Below the pieces are notes generated by a model, which was given only the letters and a program-made list of their open reading frames with translations, had not been told where the DNA came from and ran no database searches. From IMG/VR virus record IMGVR_UViG_2529293246_000004: a DNA stretch of 31,096 nt; one strand, 5' to 3'. Below are positions 5,413 to 27,248 of the stretch, piece after piece (the first letter of the stretch is position 1; every line of letters begins with the position of its first letter). The translations under genes and the position numbers were made by a program. The DNA is from a virus (lineage: Duplodnaviria > Heunggongvirae > Uroviricota > Caudoviricetes).

Positions 5413-6603
5413 TTAATTGCTGTTAACCGAAGTGACCAGATTTGCCAGGTATTTATCGGTAATACGCTGGCGCAGGGTCAGGTTTTCGAGAGGAGGCACC
5501 GGTGTATAGTCGTAGTCGATATACAGTTTTCCGGCCTTGAGGGTTTCCGCATCGTTGGATTCTTCGCTGAACCAGCAGGTCGCATCCACGATATAGCCGT
5601 TTGTTTTCAGCTCACGGAATTTGGCATTGATGCCGTCAACGATGTCGCGAATCAGCGTTGCGGTGATGGGCTTGTCCACCGCCCACATGTGCGCCTCAGC
5701 CATCGTGTCGGCCAGCACCTGCGCGGTGCGGGTGTAGTTTTCAAAGAGGAACAGCGGGTCATCAGAGCAGGTACGGTTACCCCAGAAGCGGAAACCGTCA
5801 CGGCGAATCAGCGTTGTGACGCCTGACTCATTCAGCAGGTCAGCATCGGTGCCGGACTCCTGCAAATCCCAGAATACAGATGCGCTGATGCCGGTAACAC
5901 CGTTCACCCCGACGTTGGACAGCGTTTTATGCCAGCCCTGCTCCTGGTCGATTCTGGCACGCAGACCCAGCGCACGGGCGGTGGCATACGCGGTGGCGGT
6001 GGTACTGGCAACCGTATCCCATGCGAGGAAATCCGGCCAGATGACCATCAGCTCACGCTGGCTGAAATTCTGACGGTAGGCTTTCACCTCGGAAATGGTC
6101 TTACAGCCCCATGCGCTGATATATCCGAAAGCGCGCAGCTTCTGACAGACTGATGCCAGTGCAACAGCCACCTCTTTGGTATCCAGCCCCGGCACACCAA
6201 GAATACGCGGTTTAACACCGGTTACCGACTCCGCCGCCAGCAGGGCTTTCAGTCCGGTGTACTGACCGTTTTCGTCAGTGGTGCCGATGATATTGGAAAC
6301 GGTCTGCGCGAGTTTCGTTTCTTCGTCGTCGCCGGTTCCGTCTTCCACGCGCACGACAACGGTGACCGGTTTTGACTGGTCAGCGATGGCCTGCAACGAT
6401 GCCGCCAGCGTGCCTTTTTTACCGGCCTTTGCAATCGCGCTCTGCACATTGGTGATCAGCACCGGTTTATTGACGGGGAAGGTTTCCGCATCCGCATCGC
6501 TGGCCGTGCAGACCATGCCAACAATGGCGGTGGATACGGTGGAAATGACGCGGGTGCCGTCGTTAATCTCCAGCACCTGCACGCCGTGATGATAGTCACT
6601 CAT
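5413..6603 (-). CDS. FI: Contractile tail sheath protein FI
   Basis: 396 aa (P2 gpFI length). First gene of the FI-FII-E-T-U-D late operon. Confidence 0.9.
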   Translation of the reverse strand: MSDYHHGVQVLEINDGTRVISTVSTAIVGMVCTASDADAETFPVNKPVLITNVQSAIAKAGKKGTLAASLQAIADQSKPVTVVVRVEDGTGDDEETKLAQTVSNIIGTTDENGQYTGLKALLAAESVTGVKPRILGVPGLDTKEVAVALASVCQKLRAFGYISAWGCKTISEVKAYRQNFSQRELMVIWPDFLAWDTVASTTATAYATARALGLRARIDQEQGWHKTLSNVGVNGVTGISASVFWDLQESGTDADLLNESGVTTLIRRDGFRFWGNRTCSDDPLFLFENYTRTAQVLADTMAEAHMWAVDKPITATLIRDIVDGINAKFRELKTNGYIVDATCWFSEESNDAETLKAGKLYIDYDYTPVPPLENLTLRQRITDKYLANLVTSVNSN

Positions 6604-6700
6604 CCGTTTAACTCCGTGGTTAATGGGTGCAACTATTTTCTGTTGTGCAGAGCATGAGACGCTATTTGACCTGGCTGGTCAGTGGATGAAACAACAGATA
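6604..6700 (-). promoter_or_regulatory. Putative Ogr-dependent late promoter region (PF) upstream of FI
   Basis: Placed by operon logic: non-coding stretch immediately 5' of FI on the minus strand. I could not find a clean TGT-N12-ACA activator site by eye. Confidence 0.3.
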
Positions 6701-6707
6701 AAGAAAA

Positions 6708-6726
6708 GGCGGGCAATTCGCCCGCC
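6708..6726 (-). terminator. GC-rich hairpin followed by a T-tract on the minus strand
   Basis: GGCGGGC-aattc-GCCCGCC perfect 7-bp stem. On the minus strand it is followed by TTTTCTTT. Located between the cargo gene and the FI promoter region. Confidence 0.45.
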
Positions 6727-6862
6727 TGTCCTGATTTGTACTCACTCATTTTCCGACTGACAATTTACATAGCCAAAACACTATCATTTCCCTGACGTTA
6801 AGTTGTATCTTTGATAGGATTAAAAAATGTATAGATAGCTTATACTATTGAGGGAACAAAAA

Positions 6863-7672
6863 ATGACGCAAATTAGTGAACGATGGAAGCACAACGGCAT
6901 TACTAAAGGTTATTGCAATATTTGTGGAAAATATGACTTCCTCACAAAAGATCATGTTCCTCCAAAGTGTGCCATAACCTTAGGTCCTGTTCTTCAGAAA
7001 ACAGTTAGCGAATTTTTTGGTGTTCAGGAACCAGTTAAACCATTAAATGCTAAAAACGGCTCTTATTTCAAAACCATTTGCAGCCACTGTAACAATAAGG
7101 TGTTAGGTGGACTCGACGTTGCAATTGAAAATGTAGCAAAGTCCTTTAAAGAACAGTTGAGTCAATATATGAATGGTATGAATGTATATCCATTCATTAG
7201 AATACCTTTTGATAGCATATCTTTCACTAAGGCTATGATTGGACACGTGCTATCGGCAACTTCAGTTGAAGATTGTAAAAAAGAACCCGTAGATAGCCCC
7301 TTCTATACACCTTTAAAAGATTATGTTTTGGGTAAGAATCCAAGTTTTGAGGAGACTCATGATATTTACTACTGGTTTTACCCACACAGAATGCACATAT
7401 CAGCTCAAAGTGTAGCATTTATGAACGAAGGACATGTAGCATTTATTTGTGCTTTACATTTTTTTCCTATCGGTTTTATTATCACAATTAAAAATGAAGG
7501 AATATACCCTGCACACTCAACAAAATTAGAACTTAAAGATAAATTCCTTACATTTAACATGACATCTGTAAATTATGAGTATACGACATTTCCATTTGTA
7601 AATCTTAAGGGAAACCAAATGTATGCTATAAGCAACGGCCATACATGTGTGAGTTATCCAATAATTAAGTGA
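6863..7672 (+). CDS. Hypothetical cargo protein with N-terminal HNH-like zinc-finger nuclease motif (Z/fun-position moron)
   Basis: ORF 6848..7672 begins at a TTG; the first ATG is at 6863 with GAGGGAA about 8 nt upstream. N-terminus carries C-x2-C (CNIC), then DHVPP, then C-x2-C-N-x-K (CSHCNNK), the HNH/His-Me finger pattern. GC content is visibly low compared with the flanking tail genes. Opposite strand to the neighbouring structural genes. Confidence 0.6.
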   Translation: MTQISERWKHNGITKGYCNICGKYDFLTKDHVPPKCAITLGPVLQKTVSEFFGVQEPVKPLNAKNGSYFKTICSHCNNKVLGGLDVAIENVAKSFKEQLSQYMNGMNVYPFIRIPFDSISFTKAMIGHVLSATSVEDCKKEPVDSPFYTPLKDYVLGKNPSFEETHDIYYWFYPHRMHISAQSVAFMNEGHVAFICALHFFPIGFIITIKNEGIYPAHSTKLELKDKFLTFNMTSVNYEYTTFPFVNLKGNQMYAISNGHTCVSYPIIK

Positions 7673-7726
7673 CTGCTAGATCATAAAATCGACGCAAGTT
7701 CACTTTCTACATATACCATCTATAAT

Positions 7727-7750
7727 GTCCGCTCTTGGCACAGAGCGGAC
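7727..7750. terminator. Perfect 9-bp stem hairpin between convergent cargo gene and G
   Basis: GTCCGCTCT-tggcac-AGAGCGGAC. Sits in the 127-bp gap between the stop of the plus-strand cargo gene (7672) and the stop of minus-strand G (7800). The flanking U-tract is weak on both strands. Confidence 0.4.
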
Positions 7751-7799
7751 TGTCAGATTAGGCTTTACTCTATGCAATAGATATGTAAGCTCATACAAC

Positions 7800-8327
7800 T
7801 TATTGCGGCATTTCCGGCCATTCAGGATTTGCAGGATCCACACGACTGACCAGAACGCTGTAACGCTCCCATGCTTCCAGTCGGCTACGCTCCTCATCTG
7901 TTGCCATGTTCAGTCTGACCGCGCGCTCCAGCGGCAAAATCACGGATTCAGCATCTGCAAGAAGTCTAGCTTTCCGGTTTTCTGCCTGCTGCTGCAATTC
8001 CTCTGCCGTATAAATGCGTTTAATCACTTTGCCATCCTTAAACATCCAGTTCCCTGAAATGTCCGCCCGTCGGTTAGCAGTAATATCCGCCACTTCAACC
8101 ACACTTAATCCATCCGGTCTGATAGCTGTCACATCCTTTTCCACATAGCGGATAATATTATCTTTGTCGTACGCTATTTTTATCGTGTCATCAGCAAAAT
8201 ACTTTTGTTCTTCGTACCAGTTCTTACCATCTTCTGAAAAAAACCAGACAACATCAAAGTCCTTTGTCAATTGATATTGTTCAACCGTTTTTGGATTACC
8301 CGCCGTAATATTTTTTAAATGCTGCAT
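7800..8327 (-). CDS. G: Tail fibre assembly protein (chaperone)
   Basis: 175 aa (P2 gpG length), immediately downstream of H. AT-richer than the core genes. Confidence 0.82.
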
Positions 8328-22422: not shown

Positions 22423-22441
22423 GTGCTTTCCCCGCCTCGCC
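22423..22441. other. cos: cos site (19-nt cohesive-end sequence), internal to the element
   Basis: Plus strand reads GTGCTTTCCCCGCCTCGCC, the reverse complement of GGCGAGGCGGGGAAAGCAC, which I recall as the P2 cohesive end. The adjacent reverse-complement sequence (ACTGCGCGCTG...GGTGGTGCTGATT) also resembles the P2 left end. Confidence 0.8.
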
Positions 22442-22679
22442 CGCCCGCTTCATGGAGCGGTTTTAATGCAGTTGCATAGATACTATGGATCCGCACCAGT
22501 CCTGACCGCACGCAGCCTGAACGGACATCCCCGACGCATGCAAAAACATTCACTTGTTGCATGCAACGGCTTATTTAATGACAAACCAACTTAAATTTAC
22601 AAAATCCACAGGTATGGATACTTTGCGAACATGATAGGCTTACGAGAATTATCGTGCCTGTTTTTGAACGGAGAAAGTT

Positions 22680-23621
22680 ATGCAAGGTGAAGTTGACGAA
22701 CAGCAACCAAATGAGATTATTTCGGAGTTTGGATACTATCCAGTAGAAGTTAACATTGAGACTGAACAATTTTCTTTGCGTACTTTACCCGGTCTTATTG
22801 AGAAAGTGGAACGTATTAACAATGATAAAAACGTTGTTAATGGTTGGATATACCCTGGGAATCGAGAGGTATATAACCTTAATGGTGACTCATGCACAAT
22901 GCCTTATAGTTACCGAGTATTCGGCATGCCCAAAACGCACACACTAAAATTAAAAAACACATCCTCGTTAGAAACTCTCAACTTTGTTGTGTGGTGCCTC
23001 TCTTTTTTCAAGGGTATAAGATTGACAACCACTGACGCTGGTTTTCTTGATGCAACCACTATCAAGCCCACTAAGTTAACCGATTTTATTCTCGTTGGAT
23101 GCTCTGAAAAAGAAGTCATAGAACTGGCTCTTAATTATATAACTAACAAACAAAAGGATGCGCACTCCCCCAAAAGAATTGCGGCAGTGGTGCATGCGCT
23201 ATTCTTATCTCAAAACCCACAATACCTTCCTTTTGAAAAATTCCAGTACCTTTACATGGCACTTGATGGTTGCTTTGCTTTATCGTGGGCTGAGCATGAC
23301 AAGGCTCCTGATAAAACCCAGCCAAATCATTCCAAGCGATTAAAGTGGATGTGCAGAATTTATGGGTTATCAATCCCCACATGGGTATCAGGCAAAAAAA
23401 ACATTTCTGGCATCCGCAATGATAATTTTCATGAGGCTATTTTTTTTGGCCAACCACTTGGTTTTTCCAGTGTTAACAACAATCAATATGGTAACGATAT
23501 ATTACTGCAAATGCAGAAACTCGTTTGTCGCCTATTAGCGGCAATACTGTCGGTTAATGATTGCGGTTATCTCAAATCTTCGGTCAACTCACGAGAGTAC
23601 CATTCATTAAAATTAACTTAA
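22680..23621 (+). CDS. Hypothetical cargo protein, 313 aa, at the position P2 uses for old
   Basis: ATG at 22680 with GGAGA 7 nt upstream. AT-rich. I recognise no conserved motif and see no Walker A P-loop. Opposite strand to the early operon, as P2 old is. Confidence 0.6.
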   Translation: MQGEVDEQQPNEIISEFGYYPVEVNIETEQFSLRTLPGLIEKVERINNDKNVVNGWIYPGNREVYNLNGDSCTMPYSYRVFGMPKTHTLKLKNTSSLETLNFVVWCLSFFKGIRLTTTDAGFLDATTIKPTKLTDFILVGCSEKEVIELALNYITNKQKDAHSPKRIAAVVHALFLSQNPQYLPFEKFQYLYMALDGCFALSWAEHDKAPDKTQPNHSKRLKWMCRIYGLSIPTWVSGKKNISGIRNDNFHEAIFFGQPLGFSSVNNNQYGNDILLQMQKLVCRLLAAILSVNDCGYLKSSVNSREYHSLKLT

Positions 23622-23652
23622 TGCTAACGCCTCACTTCGTTCGTTGTTCAAC

Positions 23653-23690
23653 CCCGCCAGCACTGAAAACATGTTTCATTGCTGGCGGGG
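23653..23690 (+). terminator. Long hairpin downstream of the 313-aa gene
   Basis: CCCCGCCAGC ... GCTGGCGGGG 10-bp stem around an 18-nt loop that is itself palindromic, followed by TTCTCT. Begins about 30 nt after the stop codon. Confidence 0.45.
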
Positions 23691-23941
23691 TTCTCTATCG
23701 TCTGCGTGGTGGCGGCGCAAGGCTGGACTGACCGATATAGTTAAGCTGTTCGTAATTATCCCTGACTATTTCGGCACACCCGACTAGCTCATCGGGCGTC
23801 AGATTTTCGTTGACCATAATCTGCTGTAAACGGTGAACAATGGCCATCAACCTGACACTTTTGGTGTTATATGTGGTATCTCACATGAGATTACTGACCA
23901 AGGTGCATCTTGGTTGACTCATTTCATATCCATCCACACCA

Positions 23942-24622
23942 CTACATCTTTATTGCATATTTATTAAAAGACGCCCAGTTCAACAAAAAAACATTATTCA
24001 TATACCATTCAATATAATTTTTATTTTTAGATTGACTGTCAAGTAGCACACAAACATCAACCTGTTTATCAATCAATTTTGCAATATAAACCACAAACTC
24101 AACACTCGAATATCTCTTTGTGCCTAGCAAATATAATATTTCATCTGACAAATAATTAGACTCATGTGAAAAGACATTATCATTTAACAAAATCAATCCG
24201 CCAATCGAGTCATTTAAATCCAAAACATCCTTTGTTGCATTTATTTGCTTATTAGCTTCTTTAACTACCTTTGTTTTAATATTTTCATAAGCAAAGTTCA
24301 TTATATCATTTCTAAATCGCTTTGAGTCTGGGTGTCTTTTTATCAACTCTTCTAAATGAATAGCACCATGCCAGTTTTTTGCAAGCCAACTATCAGTTTT
24401 AACCAACTCATTCAGTTTATCATTGACATTCTTGACCCTGTCAGAAAAAAGACTTTTCATCTCCAAAATTATCTTTTTATTATCAATAAGATAATCTGCC
24501 ATCTTGCGATTCTGACCATCCTTCATCCGGAACTTATGATGAATATCATCAATAGAAATCCCTTTTTCATGCTCAACAATGAATCTCTTAACATTGTTTT
24601 CTAATTCGCTGTATTGTTTCAT
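23942..24622 (-). CDS. Hypothetical cargo protein, 226 aa, at the position P2 uses for tin
   Basis: ATG at 24622 with GGGGGA upstream. Markedly AT-rich, Lys/Asn-rich protein with no motif I recognise. Directly downstream of a small gene on the same strand. Confidence 0.6.
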   Translation of the reverse strand: MKQYSELENNVKRFIVEHEKGISIDDIHHKFRMKDGQNRKMADYLIDNKKIILEMKSLFSDRVKNVNDKLNELVKTDSWLAKNWHGAIHLEELIKRHPDSKRFRNDIMNFAYENIKTKVVKEANKQINATKDVLDLNDSIGGLILLNDNVFSHESNYLSDEILYLLGTKRYSSVEFVVYIAKLIDKQVDVCVLLDSQSKNKNYIEWYMNNVFLLNWASFNKYAIKM

Positions 24623-24649
24623 TCTTTCCCCCGTGAATTTTATTGTGAT

Positions 24650-24841
24650 TCACTTACGTGGACGACACAGCATACCACTTTTACTCTCTGCTATTTCCAG
24701 TAAATCAATGGAGAATGACTCCTCGTGCAAAACTCCTTCTTTATCATGCCAAATACATTTAGCATGAGTCTCAGTAGAGTCAGATACAGTCATTTTAAAT
24801 CCACCGCTTTTCAAACAAACAACATCTGCAGGCTTTAACAT
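24650..24841 (-). CDS. Small DUF2158/YodC-like protein, 63 aa
   Basis: ORF 24650..24925 trimmed to the ATG at 24841, which has GGAGA 5-6 nt upstream. Sequence MLKPADVVCLKSGGFKMTVSDSTETHAKCIWHDKEGVLHEESF resembles the GD-VV-LKSGGP-MTV...C-W core of YodC-like small proteins. First gene of a two-gene minus-strand unit. Confidence 0.55.
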   Translation of the reverse strand: MLKPADVVCLKSGGFKMTVSDSTETHAKCIWHDKEGVLHEESFSIDLLEIAESKSGMLCRPRK

Positions 24842-24968
24842 TTTTGTCTCCAACATTTTTAAGTAATGCATTATAACATAATGATATTGACGTAGATTTA
24901 ATGCATGCAACCATATAAAAAACAATCAATTACAGTCAAAACTGCTTAATACTGTATAGATGAGATCA

Positions 24969-27248
24969 TTACTCAAATTGATGCCAGAATCCCGGCCACT
25001 CATCAGCGACCGGATACGTGAATTTTTTCCCGTCATAATTTACGGTCGCGCCACGCGCCAGCGCCTCAAGCTCCCATCGCTGCGGCCTGATACCGTTCTG
25101 AGCAAGGTCAACGCGGATACGGGTGATTTGCAATCGTTCAGACCGGCTCAGTCTGGCCGATGGTGCAATTTCATGCGGTTTTAACGGGCTTCCGTTTCTT
25201 TGTTGACGATTTGGCGTTCTCAGCCCGTGTTTTAATGCGCCCCTGAGCGCCCTCACGACATCCGGGTCATTCCATTCGATAACACCGTCATCAGCCAGAT
25301 TAAGCACGGCTGCGGCGTGTTCAGAAGGCGTGGGAGCCGGTAACGAAGTATTACCGCCGGTGAGCTTTCCACAGTTATTGACAGGACTCCGAGGCGCGGC
25401 GATGCCGCTTTTTAAAGTCAAAGGCTCAACGACCGGCACTTTCGGAACAATGCGCCAGTCCGTCGTTCTGGTGATATGAATATGACGCGCGCCGAGATGC
25501 GGCGCGTAAATGCCGACCACTCTCTCGACTTCTTCCTCGTACTCGTTAACGTCATCCGACGGGCTACGGGCAACCCTGACAGTCTGGCAATCGCGCGGGA
25601 CATTTGCCCCACCCTGCGCGCTGATATACAGCGCAAAATCACCACTGTCTGCGGCGGCGCGTGCAGCCTCGACGCGCTCGTCAAACTCATCAGCAATGCT
25701 GACGCCGCGAGGCAATTTGCGTAGTTCACGGTAAGCCCCCATTGTCGGCAGGCCAACCGTTTTAAATTGCGGAATGCGCCACGTTGACGCCCATGCGGTA
25801 ACAGCCGCGGCAGTATCTTTCAGCGGTCTGCCGGTATCGTTATCGAGCTGCCCATCCAGTGCATAGCCGTCGATATTTTTTGAGATGTATTTCGCGATAT
25901 ACCCCGCAGCACCGCCCCGGTTAAGGTGTTTTTCCTGAAAACGGTTTCGCGCGGCTCCTCTTTCGTCGCCATCCTCTTTGAGCGCATAGCGACGCATGAT
26001 TTCGATAATCTGGTTACGCTGGCGTGGATGACAAAAAAGCATCATATGCCAGTGCGGCGTTCCGTCGTGGTGTGGCTCGACGACACGCAAACCGTAGACC
26101 TGTAAATCATTATCCTTGAATGCCGTGCGCATCAGGCTCCAGATACGGCAGAGATAACGCTGCGCATCCTTTGGATTAAATGCCTCATCGTTCCAGCCGT
26201 GATTAAGCTGAACGGTTTTACTTTCGCCTTTTCCGACCTGACGTGTCGGGTGATACTTTGACGGCGCGGTCAGCGTGATAAACATCCCCAAATCACCCTC
26301 TGCGGCGGCGTAACGCTCAATACCGGCAATGGTGTTCATCAGCTCCATCCGGCGAATTTCTGGATTAGAAATACTGCCCATCACCTTACTGATAAGGTCG
26401 ATGCGCTCGCCGGTTTCCCTGTTTTCAAGGTCACACGATTTAAGAAATTCCAGATTTGCCTGGCGGCGCGCACGCACATCACGAATGGCATGTTTACTGG
26501 CATAAGGAGAACGGTCTTTATTGACCTCCCCGACAGCAATCAGTAACGCCTCATGCCAGCGCATACGCTGGCCTTTAAGCTGACTAATCCACCACTCATC
26601 GTTAAACAGACGGGCAATGGCAGAATATGCCTGCCTCGTGGTCATCTGTCCTTTACTGTATTTTTTCCAGTAGAGCGGGGAAATATTGAAAGCACGTGCA
26701 GCGCCAGCAACATGACCATACAGGTGAGCCTGCGCCTCATCCGTAAACAGCGATTCTTTTTCACCATGCGCATCAACCCATGCATCGCAGAGTTCCTCAT
26801 ACATCATGAAAAGCTGCGATGAGATACGGGCGGCAAACTTTTTCAGCTCCTTGTCATTCATTCCAGGCAGGCGCGCATAGTGGTCACGCTCTGCCAGAAA
26901 CAGCAACGACGCGTCGGTGTTCATTTCATGGCGCTGATTCACGCGCTCAATGCGCGGCCATAAACGACGCTGAAAAGTGGATGTGAGGAAATAAAACCCG
27001 TGCACCGGGCTTTTATTGCGCCGGATGTAGTCATAGCGTGAAGTAAACAGCGAACGCAAAAAGTAAGGCAGGCGGTTAATCGTGGATAAAACACCTTGCA
27101 CCTGACGCATCTCGTCACGTGTAAGGGGTCTTTCGCGCCCGACGGCCTCGCGTGGCGCGTTCCATGCATAAGCACCGGTAAACGTCTTACCGGTGCCTGC
27201 GGCAAATGCTGACGGAGGGACAAAACGCCCGGAGGCTTTAACGTCCAT
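24969..27248 (-). CDS. A: Replication initiation protein A (rolling-circle nicking endonuclease)
   Basis: ORF 24969..27290 (773 aa from a TTG) trimmed to the first ATG at 27248, giving 759 aa, close to P2 gpA (761 aa). Last gene of the early operon. Confidence 0.88.
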   Translation of the reverse strand: MDVKASGRFVPPSAFAAGTGKTFTGAYAWNAPREAVGRERPLTRDEMRQVQGVLSTINRLPYFLRSLFTSRYDYIRRNKSPVHGFYFLTSTFQRRLWPRIERVNQRHEMNTDASLLFLAERDHYARLPGMNDKELKKFAARISSQLFMMYEELCDAWVDAHGEKESLFTDEAQAHLYGHVAGAARAFNISPLYWKKYSKGQMTTRQAYSAIARLFNDEWWISQLKGQRMRWHEALLIAVGEVNKDRSPYASKHAIRDVRARRQANLEFLKSCDLENRETGERIDLISKVMGSISNPEIRRMELMNTIAGIERYAAAEGDLGMFITLTAPSKYHPTRQVGKGESKTVQLNHGWNDEAFNPKDAQRYLCRIWSLMRTAFKDNDLQVYGLRVVEPHHDGTPHWHMMLFCHPRQRNQIIEIMRRYALKEDGDERGAARNRFQEKHLNRGGAAGYIAKYISKNIDGYALDGQLDNDTGRPLKDTAAAVTAWASTWRIPQFKTVGLPTMGAYRELRKLPRGVSIADEFDERVEAARAAADSGDFALYISAQGGANVPRDCQTVRVARSPSDDVNEYEEEVERVVGIYAPHLGARHIHITRTTDWRIVPKVPVVEPLTLKSGIAAPRSPVNNCGKLTGGNTSLPAPTPSEHAAAVLNLADDGVIEWNDPDVVRALRGALKHGLRTPNRQQRNGSPLKPHEIAPSARLSRSERLQITRIRVDLAQNGIRPQRWELEALARGATVNYDGKKFTYPVADEWPGFWHQFE

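Follow-up and report, generated by a model that had tools for sequence, protein, structure and literature searches.

ORF313, a cargo gene of the P2 gpQ-gpA defence hotspot, encodes a two-domain protein with a probable HEPN-like domain and a candidate role in phage exclusion

The window analysed here is a 31,096-nucleotide stretch of a Caudoviricetes virus (IMG/VR record IMGVR_UViG_2529293246_000004), and the subject of this report is its cos-proximal open reading frame (ORF), ORF313, which encodes a protein of 313 aa. The protein is built from two conserved halves, of which the C-terminal one carries an invariant RNxxxH motif and probably adopts a HEPN fold. The gene is not part of the P2 core; it is carried as cargo in the hypervariable gpQ-gpA interval, a known defence hotspot, and it has no conserved partner. 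We lean towards a role for ORF313 in defence. The joint claim, that it is a stand-alone, self-regulated HEPN ribonuclease (RNase) acting in abortive infection or exclusion, is in our judgement evenly poised.

ORF313 is a genuine gene. It was found as given in a preliminary description of this DNA, with a GGAG before the ATG, and the AT-rich composition noted there is evident from its GC content of 0.39, compared to 0.52 across the whole window; the low-GC block spans 22500-25000. Comparison with three phage homologues indicated purifying selection (ratio of non-synonymous to synonymous substitution rates, dN/dS, of 0.26-0.30). Homologues amount to 390 clusters at a 90% identity cut-off and 650 at 50%. 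A protein deposited from phage P2-EC67 in 2005, also under the name 'ORF313' and with neighbours named ORF226 and ORF73, shows 98.7% protein identity to the window protein.

In alignments of 30, 45 and 63 homologues, the proteins share one layout: about 300 aa, divided into two conserved halves, an N-terminal alpha/beta domain and a C-terminal helical domain (Table 1). In the latter, R246 and H251 never vary across 45 homologues that share 25-50% identity with the window protein, and the conservation of N247 and E252 is at least 90%. The RNxxxH(E) motif is near-invariant in the 63-homologue alignment as well. RNxxxH is the canonical form of the HEPN Rx4-6H motif, which was reportedly defined by Anantharaman et al. 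(2013). In the predicted structure, the C-terminal domain matches the HEPN fold, forming an up-and-down four-helix bundle, and R246 and H251 lie in the last core helix (residues 242-256), as in HEPN domains. The structures listed with this comparison comprise the HEPN proteins 4nqf, 2hsb and 1wol, the sacsin HEPN domain, the HEPN-MNT toxins 7ae2 and 5yep, and also the C-domains of aminoglycoside and lincosamide nucleotidyltransferases. Two sub-threshold profile matches point in the same direction, each from one of the 45 homologues: to HEPN_RiboL-PSP (E 0.074) and to HEPN_Apea (E 0.15). The preliminary description had recognised no motif in the protein, which was wrong: there is an invariant one, and it sits in the domain that is modelled with a HEPN-like fold. 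We consider the HEPN assignment of the C-terminal domain likely; support from fold and motif is moderate and not decisive. The N-terminal domain, strongly conserved and with no relative that could be recognised, is proposed to be a sensor or regulatory module.

Searches for known families placed the protein in none with a described function. The window protein had no match at E ≤ 1 in Pfam, NCBIfam or PADLOC 2.0, and profile searches of 30 and 45 homologues and of family consensus sequences against Pfam, NCBIfam and PADLOC gave nothing usable. No match was found in a PDB sequence search with ORF313, and the only PHROGs match of the window protein was phrog_5937, an 'unknown function' family; members of the ORF313 family are annotated as 'hypothetical' everywhere. 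An Rfam scan of the window found no RNA family. Judged by sequence, ORF313 belongs to no described HEPN family. Membership of the Apea-like HEPN family (PF18739) or the ApeA system was rejected, as the window protein had no match, the best family member reached only E 0.15 against PF18739 and there was no PADLOC match; the UniProt name of A0A3A8EY04 was taken as a lead only. Homology to P2 Old or Tin was ruled out by the lack of BLASTP similarity to either. An OLD family nuclease, an ABC ATPase with a Walker A motif and a TOPRIM domain in about 580 aa, was also rejected, since neither domain was found in the 313 aa of ORF313. A motif check confirmed that Walker A is missing, and together with the BLASTP result against P2 Old and the lack of Pfam and PADLOC matches this upholds the earlier view that ORF313 is not an old orthologue.

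The gene order around ORF313 is scaffold O, terminase P, portal Q, cos and ORF313, followed on the other strand by a 51-aa ORF, ORF226, a DUF2158 gene and replication gene A. ORF313 thus sits between cos and gene A and is transcribed towards A. On the cos side, window 22423-22470 is 96% identical to P2 33593-33546 (cosR). In the reference P2 genome, old is the gene nearest cos; its strand is opposite to that of gene A, and its transcription runs away from cos. ORF313 is placed identically, so the positional analogy to old drawn in the preliminary description is correct. Wphi and P2 carry other genes at this position, between portal/cos and A, making ORF313 replaceable cargo. Its sparse occurrence, in seven phage records and 93 of 5426 complete E. 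coli genomes, sets aside the possibility that it is a conserved core P2 gene. The P2 gpQ-gpA interval is an experimentally supported defence hotspot, about a quarter of whose instances hold non-defence cargo such as partition systems.

The region upstream of ORF313 is partly shared with P2. Window 22537-22612 aligns to the P2 old upstream region with 67% identity, and the mapped P2 old-tin mRNA starts align at window 22609-22611, directly 3' of a promoter-like site and about 70 nt before the ATG. This similarity and the aligned mRNA starts suggest a Pold-equivalent promoter, from which ORF313 is probably transcribed in the lysogen. Just 5' of the promoter-like site lies a perfect inverted repeat, whose columns are conserved in the P2 old upstream region and in all three of the ORF313-carrying phages that were aligned; it could be an operator, a regulatory site or another backbone signal. 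The stretch between cos and the inverted repeat (22473-22536) is unrelated to P2.

Downstream, ORF313 is followed by a conserved backbone segment of about 260 bp that matches Wphi, P22H4 and further Peduovirus records with different cargo at 82-88% identity and is missing from the reference P2 genome. The segment splits the A-to-cos interval into two independently exchangeable slots, one for ORF313 and one for the ORF226/DUF2158 unit, and is a probable recombination anchor. It includes a strong hairpin (-35.7 kcal/mol in a 96-nt fold, z -5.2) that the preliminary description had read as ORF313's own terminator. That reading did not hold: the hairpin has no T-run, was not called by a terminator scan and lies within the segment common to Wphi and other-cargo Peduovirus records, and we therefore regard it as a shared backbone element conserved whatever the cargo. 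It lies between convergent transcripts and is likely a bidirectional stop signal. The 51-aa ORF in the segment bears the odd RefSeq name 'meiotically up-regulated 80 protein'.

The family reaches far beyond this locus. A homologue of ORF313 is present in 1.7% of the complete E. coli genomes, always on the chromosome, with nucleotide identities to the window allele ranging from about 100% down to a 60-80% band. The seven phage records are all Peduoviridae, and in all of them the gene adjoins cos. Across 77 loci, taken as one genome per species, homologues occur in alpha-, beta- and gammaproteobacteria, Latescibacterota, Planctomycetota, Acidobacteria, Longimicrobiales and Thermomicrobiales. In Acinetobacter, one homologue is a moron between the capsid and portal genes of a P22-like prophage and another lies on a small plasmid beside BrnT/BrnA and RelE/ParE modules. 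A Burkholderia conjugative plasmid carries a homologue beside FRG and DUF4238 genes and an integrase, and in Pseudomonas integrase islands the order is HTH_3 gene, homologue, resolvase, near HNH and TIR-NACHT proteins. We examined the two nearest ORFs on each side at 53 non-redundant loci (138 ORFs). Strong PADLOC matches among these neighbours were mad2 (3), RmrA (2), HmaB, Drt1a, a type IIG restriction-modification enzyme, Hhe, HEC-05, PDC-S37, PDC-S49 and PDC-M06B; Pfam matches were DUF4238 (2), HSDR_N (2), MmeI, resolvases, conjugation and phage genes and plain housekeeping genes. With hosts among prophages, plasmids and islands and with defence genes as neighbours, the family shows the pattern of a mobile conflict gene, the enrichment being qualitative.

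Some of the same neighbourhoods bear on another explanation, in which ORF313 is a HEPN-type RNase with a non-defence role, either a post-segregational or addiction toxin that stabilises its element or an RNA-processing or regulatory enzyme for the element's life cycle. The toxin-antitoxin modules beside the plasmid homologues fit such a role, as does the Pseudomonas island homologue that follows a small HTH_3 gene in the manner of some toxin-antitoxin or regulator pairs, and the share of P2 hotspots with non-defence cargo adds to its appeal. Against it stand the many bona fide defence genes among the neighbours and the lack of a conserved antitoxin-like partner. A 73-aa HTH_3 gene lies directly upstream of the homologue in only 5 of 80 loci, which rules out a helix-turn-helix partner as a general feature, and no small ORF partner of ORF313 was found in the window. 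No MNT family appears among the 25 most frequent neighbour families listed. A type II HEPN-MNT pair or other toxin-antitoxin pair was rejected on the same ground, there being no conserved adjacent antitoxin gene; since a toxin with nothing to oppose it could not cause addiction, this argues against that role. Overall, we consider a non-defence RNase distinctly unlikely.

As a separate observation, the Pseudomonas loci L003-L006, L012, L013 and L026 share a fixed cassette of a 73-aa HTH_3 gene, the homologue and a serine resolvase, which may move as a unit. The integrase islands around this cassette additionally encode an HNH protein and a SEFIR/TIR-NACHT protein of 959 aa.

We also considered whether ORF313 is one part of a three-gene system with ORF226 and the DUF2158 gene. 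All 27 complete E. coli genomes that carry the two-gene unit have an immediately adjacent ORF313 homologue, and phages 720R8 and P2-EC67 contain the same trio as the window. The survey of co-occurrence proposed in the preliminary description is one-sided in E. coli, where the unit always has an ORF313 homologue beside it and most ORF313 homologues stand without the unit. The unit is missing from 66 of the 93 E. coli carriers, and likewise from phages 613R3 and YpM46 and from every non-enterobacterial locus examined. Members of the narrow ORF226 family are found by themselves on Pantoea IncFII-type plasmids; in a Citrobacter prophage, an ORF226 homologue and DUF2158 are paired with another cos-side gene. 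As each occurs without the other, obligatory linkage is ruled out. Moreover, the two lie on opposite strands with the conserved backbone segment in between. The copies of the unit in the 27 carriers are at least 99% identical, whereas the ORF313 alleles next to them fall into two groups, with about 100% and about 85% identity to the window allele, a difference of 15% that indicates reassortment across the 260-bp segment. Rousset et al. (2022) likewise count the two separately, as systems 11 and 63. A three-gene system is thus very improbable, and ORF313 is best treated as a gene that acts alone.

Table 1 Features of the ORF313 locus in the window.
Feature	Position	Strand	Remarks
P2-type 19-nt cohesive end cos, reverse complement GTGCTTTCCCCGCCTCGCC	22423..22441		Reverse complement of P2 cosR; cos-side hotspot edge
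Perfect 8-nt inverted repeat GCATGCAA(N13)TTGCATGC	22536..22564		Just 5' of promoter-like site; read from sequence
Promoter-like ATGACA-16 nt-CAAAAT	22578..22605	+	Consensus scan 9/12; counterpart by position of P2 old-tin promoter
Shine-Dalgarno GGAG	22670..22673	+	6 nt before ATG; ribosome-binding site of ORF313 annotated in AM157369
ORF313 coding sequence	22680..23621	+	313 aa + stop, ATG start; RefSeq WP_001161210.1
N-terminal alpha/beta domain, residues 1-142	22680..23105	+	Near-invariant FGYYP, W56, R79, PKTH (84-87), G112-x-R114, GFLDAT (121-126), D135
C-terminal helical domain, HEPN-like, residues 143-313	23106..23618	+	
Rx4H (RNxxxH) putative catalytic motif R246-N-D-N-F-H251-E252	23415..23435	+	Model helix 242-256
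Conserved backbone segment, ~260 bp	23624..23882		Includes hairpin and 51-aa ORF 23695..23850 (-)
Hairpin	23650..23692		Arms of 19 nt, loop of 5 nt; ORF313 and early-operon transcripts converge here
Two-gene unit ORF226 (226 aa, no domain) + DUF2158 gene	23942-24925	-	

Several results weigh against an RNase with a role in defence. No significant profile match to a described HEPN family was found in Pfam, NCBIfam, PADLOC, the family consensus searches or PDB sequences. An hhalign comparison with a MAE_28990/RiboL-PSP HEPN family, for which a sequence from Rousset's supplement served as the starting point, yielded a probability of 0.3%. A Foldseek search of the model against the PDB returned no match, which weakens the HEPN assignment, and the confidence of the model is lowest around residues 241-270, which include the motif helix (predicted local distance difference test, pLDDT, 51-64). 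As for the neighbourhood, some homologues lie amid housekeeping genes (trp genes, yidC, mnmE), one in Aeromonas lies beside an AlkZ-like gene among metabolic genes, and the enrichment of defence neighbours is a matter of qualitative counts, with no matched background for comparison. A literature search that did not extend to Brenes and Laub 2025, the 2026 NAR P2/P4 supplements or the newest DefenseFinder models found no experiments on members of the family. A rival reading is that the C-terminal helical bundle lacks HEPN catalysis and that its conserved arginine and histidine serve binding or structure. ORF313 might then bind a protein of the phage or the host and so bring about superinfection exclusion, have an anti-defence function or contribute to a lysogenic conversion unrelated to phage. 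The invariance of the two residues within the expected helix and the similarity of the model to the HEPN fold speak for the catalytic reading, and we judge the non-catalytic bundle unlikely.

On the reading we prefer, that of a self-regulated HEPN RNase, the prophage would express ORF313 from the slot that holds old (and tin) in P2. By analogy with HEPN enzymes elsewhere, the C-terminal domain would act as an endoribonuclease that needs no metal, and its active form would most likely be a dimer that pairs two Rx4H motifs. The RNase would be kept off by, or held inactive through, the N-terminal domain of about 140 residues; since there is no antitoxin gene beside ORF313, this domain is most likely autoinhibitory and phage-triggered. 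A trigger from the infecting phage would switch the RNase on, cleavage of tRNA, rRNA or mRNA would stop translation and the infection would be aborted, to the benefit of the lysogen population and the resident prophage. These steps are modelled on AbiD/F, AbiV, ApeA, Csm6 and the CBS-HEPN system DS-11. An anti-phage phenotype in the form of exclusion is a plausible prediction from position and neighbourhood.

More tentatively, ORF313 may found a widespread family of single-protein immune sensors, present in Proteobacteria and several other phyla, in which a new N-terminal fold senses a phage trigger and frees a highly divergent HEPN RNase. We see this as possible, short of likely. If true, it would provide a new sensor module and a function for one of the most abundant unassigned cargoes of the P2 hotspot.

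The family itself has been catalogued before. In Table S5B of Rousset et al. (2022), a 73%-identical homologue is 'system 11' of the P2 hotspot, a single-gene system with no domain that was found in 218 of 18,150 loci and ranks as the 11th most abundant system of the hotspot. The window protein, WP_001161210, appears in the arrangements of their Table S5A, and the ORF226/DUF2158 unit is the separate 'system 63'. System 11 was only catalogued and lay outside the systems assayed in that study; the 'Putative HEPN' that was assayed, from E. coli S88, is a different protein from ORF313. ORF313 is not among the validated DefensePredictor systems, where DS-40 (311 aa) is unrelated, and we found no papers citing WP_001161210 or CAJ43160. 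The suggestion in the preliminary description of an undescribed exclusion function therefore needs qualification. It stands in that ORF313 is hotspot cargo without annotation; it falls short in that the likely effector, a HEPN RNase, is familiar and the family is already on record in Rousset et al. (2022) and so has not gone unnoticed.

The cos-proximal hotspot of P2 has proved to be a source of anti-phage systems, and the ORF313 family is among its commonest unassigned occupants, while also being spread far beyond enterobacteria on phages, plasmids and islands. The HEPN assignment yields a directly testable hypothesis centred on R246 and H251, and the conserved N-terminal domain is a candidate new sensor of a trigger. 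If ORF313 is a defence gene, it adds a model to defence-annotation tools that now miss it; otherwise, it stands as a frequent non-defence moron of P2-like phages. To a specialist, another HEPN gene in a known defence hotspot would come as little surprise.

Apart from the ORF313 locus, the window contains a second low-GC island (6500-8000, GC 0.35-0.43) between the tail sheath and tail-fibre genes, where P2 has Z/fun, a site described as a second P2 defence hotspot (Vassallo et al. 2022). On the opposite strand within this island, an ORF of 274 aa (6848-7672, +) has no Pfam or PADLOC match and is a candidate cargo gene.

Among known systems, Rousset's system 11 represents the same protein family and locus as ORF313. 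P2 Old (an ABC ATPase with a TOPRIM nuclease) and Tin share with ORF313 the cos slot, the orientation and a partly conserved promoter region, and all are expected to be lysogenic-conversion or exclusion cargo. ORF313 differs from them in having no sequence similarity to either, neither Walker A nor TOPRIM, and about half the size of Old. Csm6/Csx1 (CARF-HEPN) and the HEPN-MNT toxins also count among the systems closest to ORF313. The nearest known kind are the single-protein HEPN abortive infection and defence proteins: AbiD/AbiF (Abi_2), AbiJ, AbiV, ApeA of Gao et al. (2020) and the CBS-HEPN system DS-11 of DefensePredictor. ORF313 has no profile match to any family of this group, and its N-terminal domain shows no relation to AbiJ-NTD, to CBS or to a solved fold. 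What would be new is thus the combination of a familiar effector with an unfamiliar N-terminal domain.
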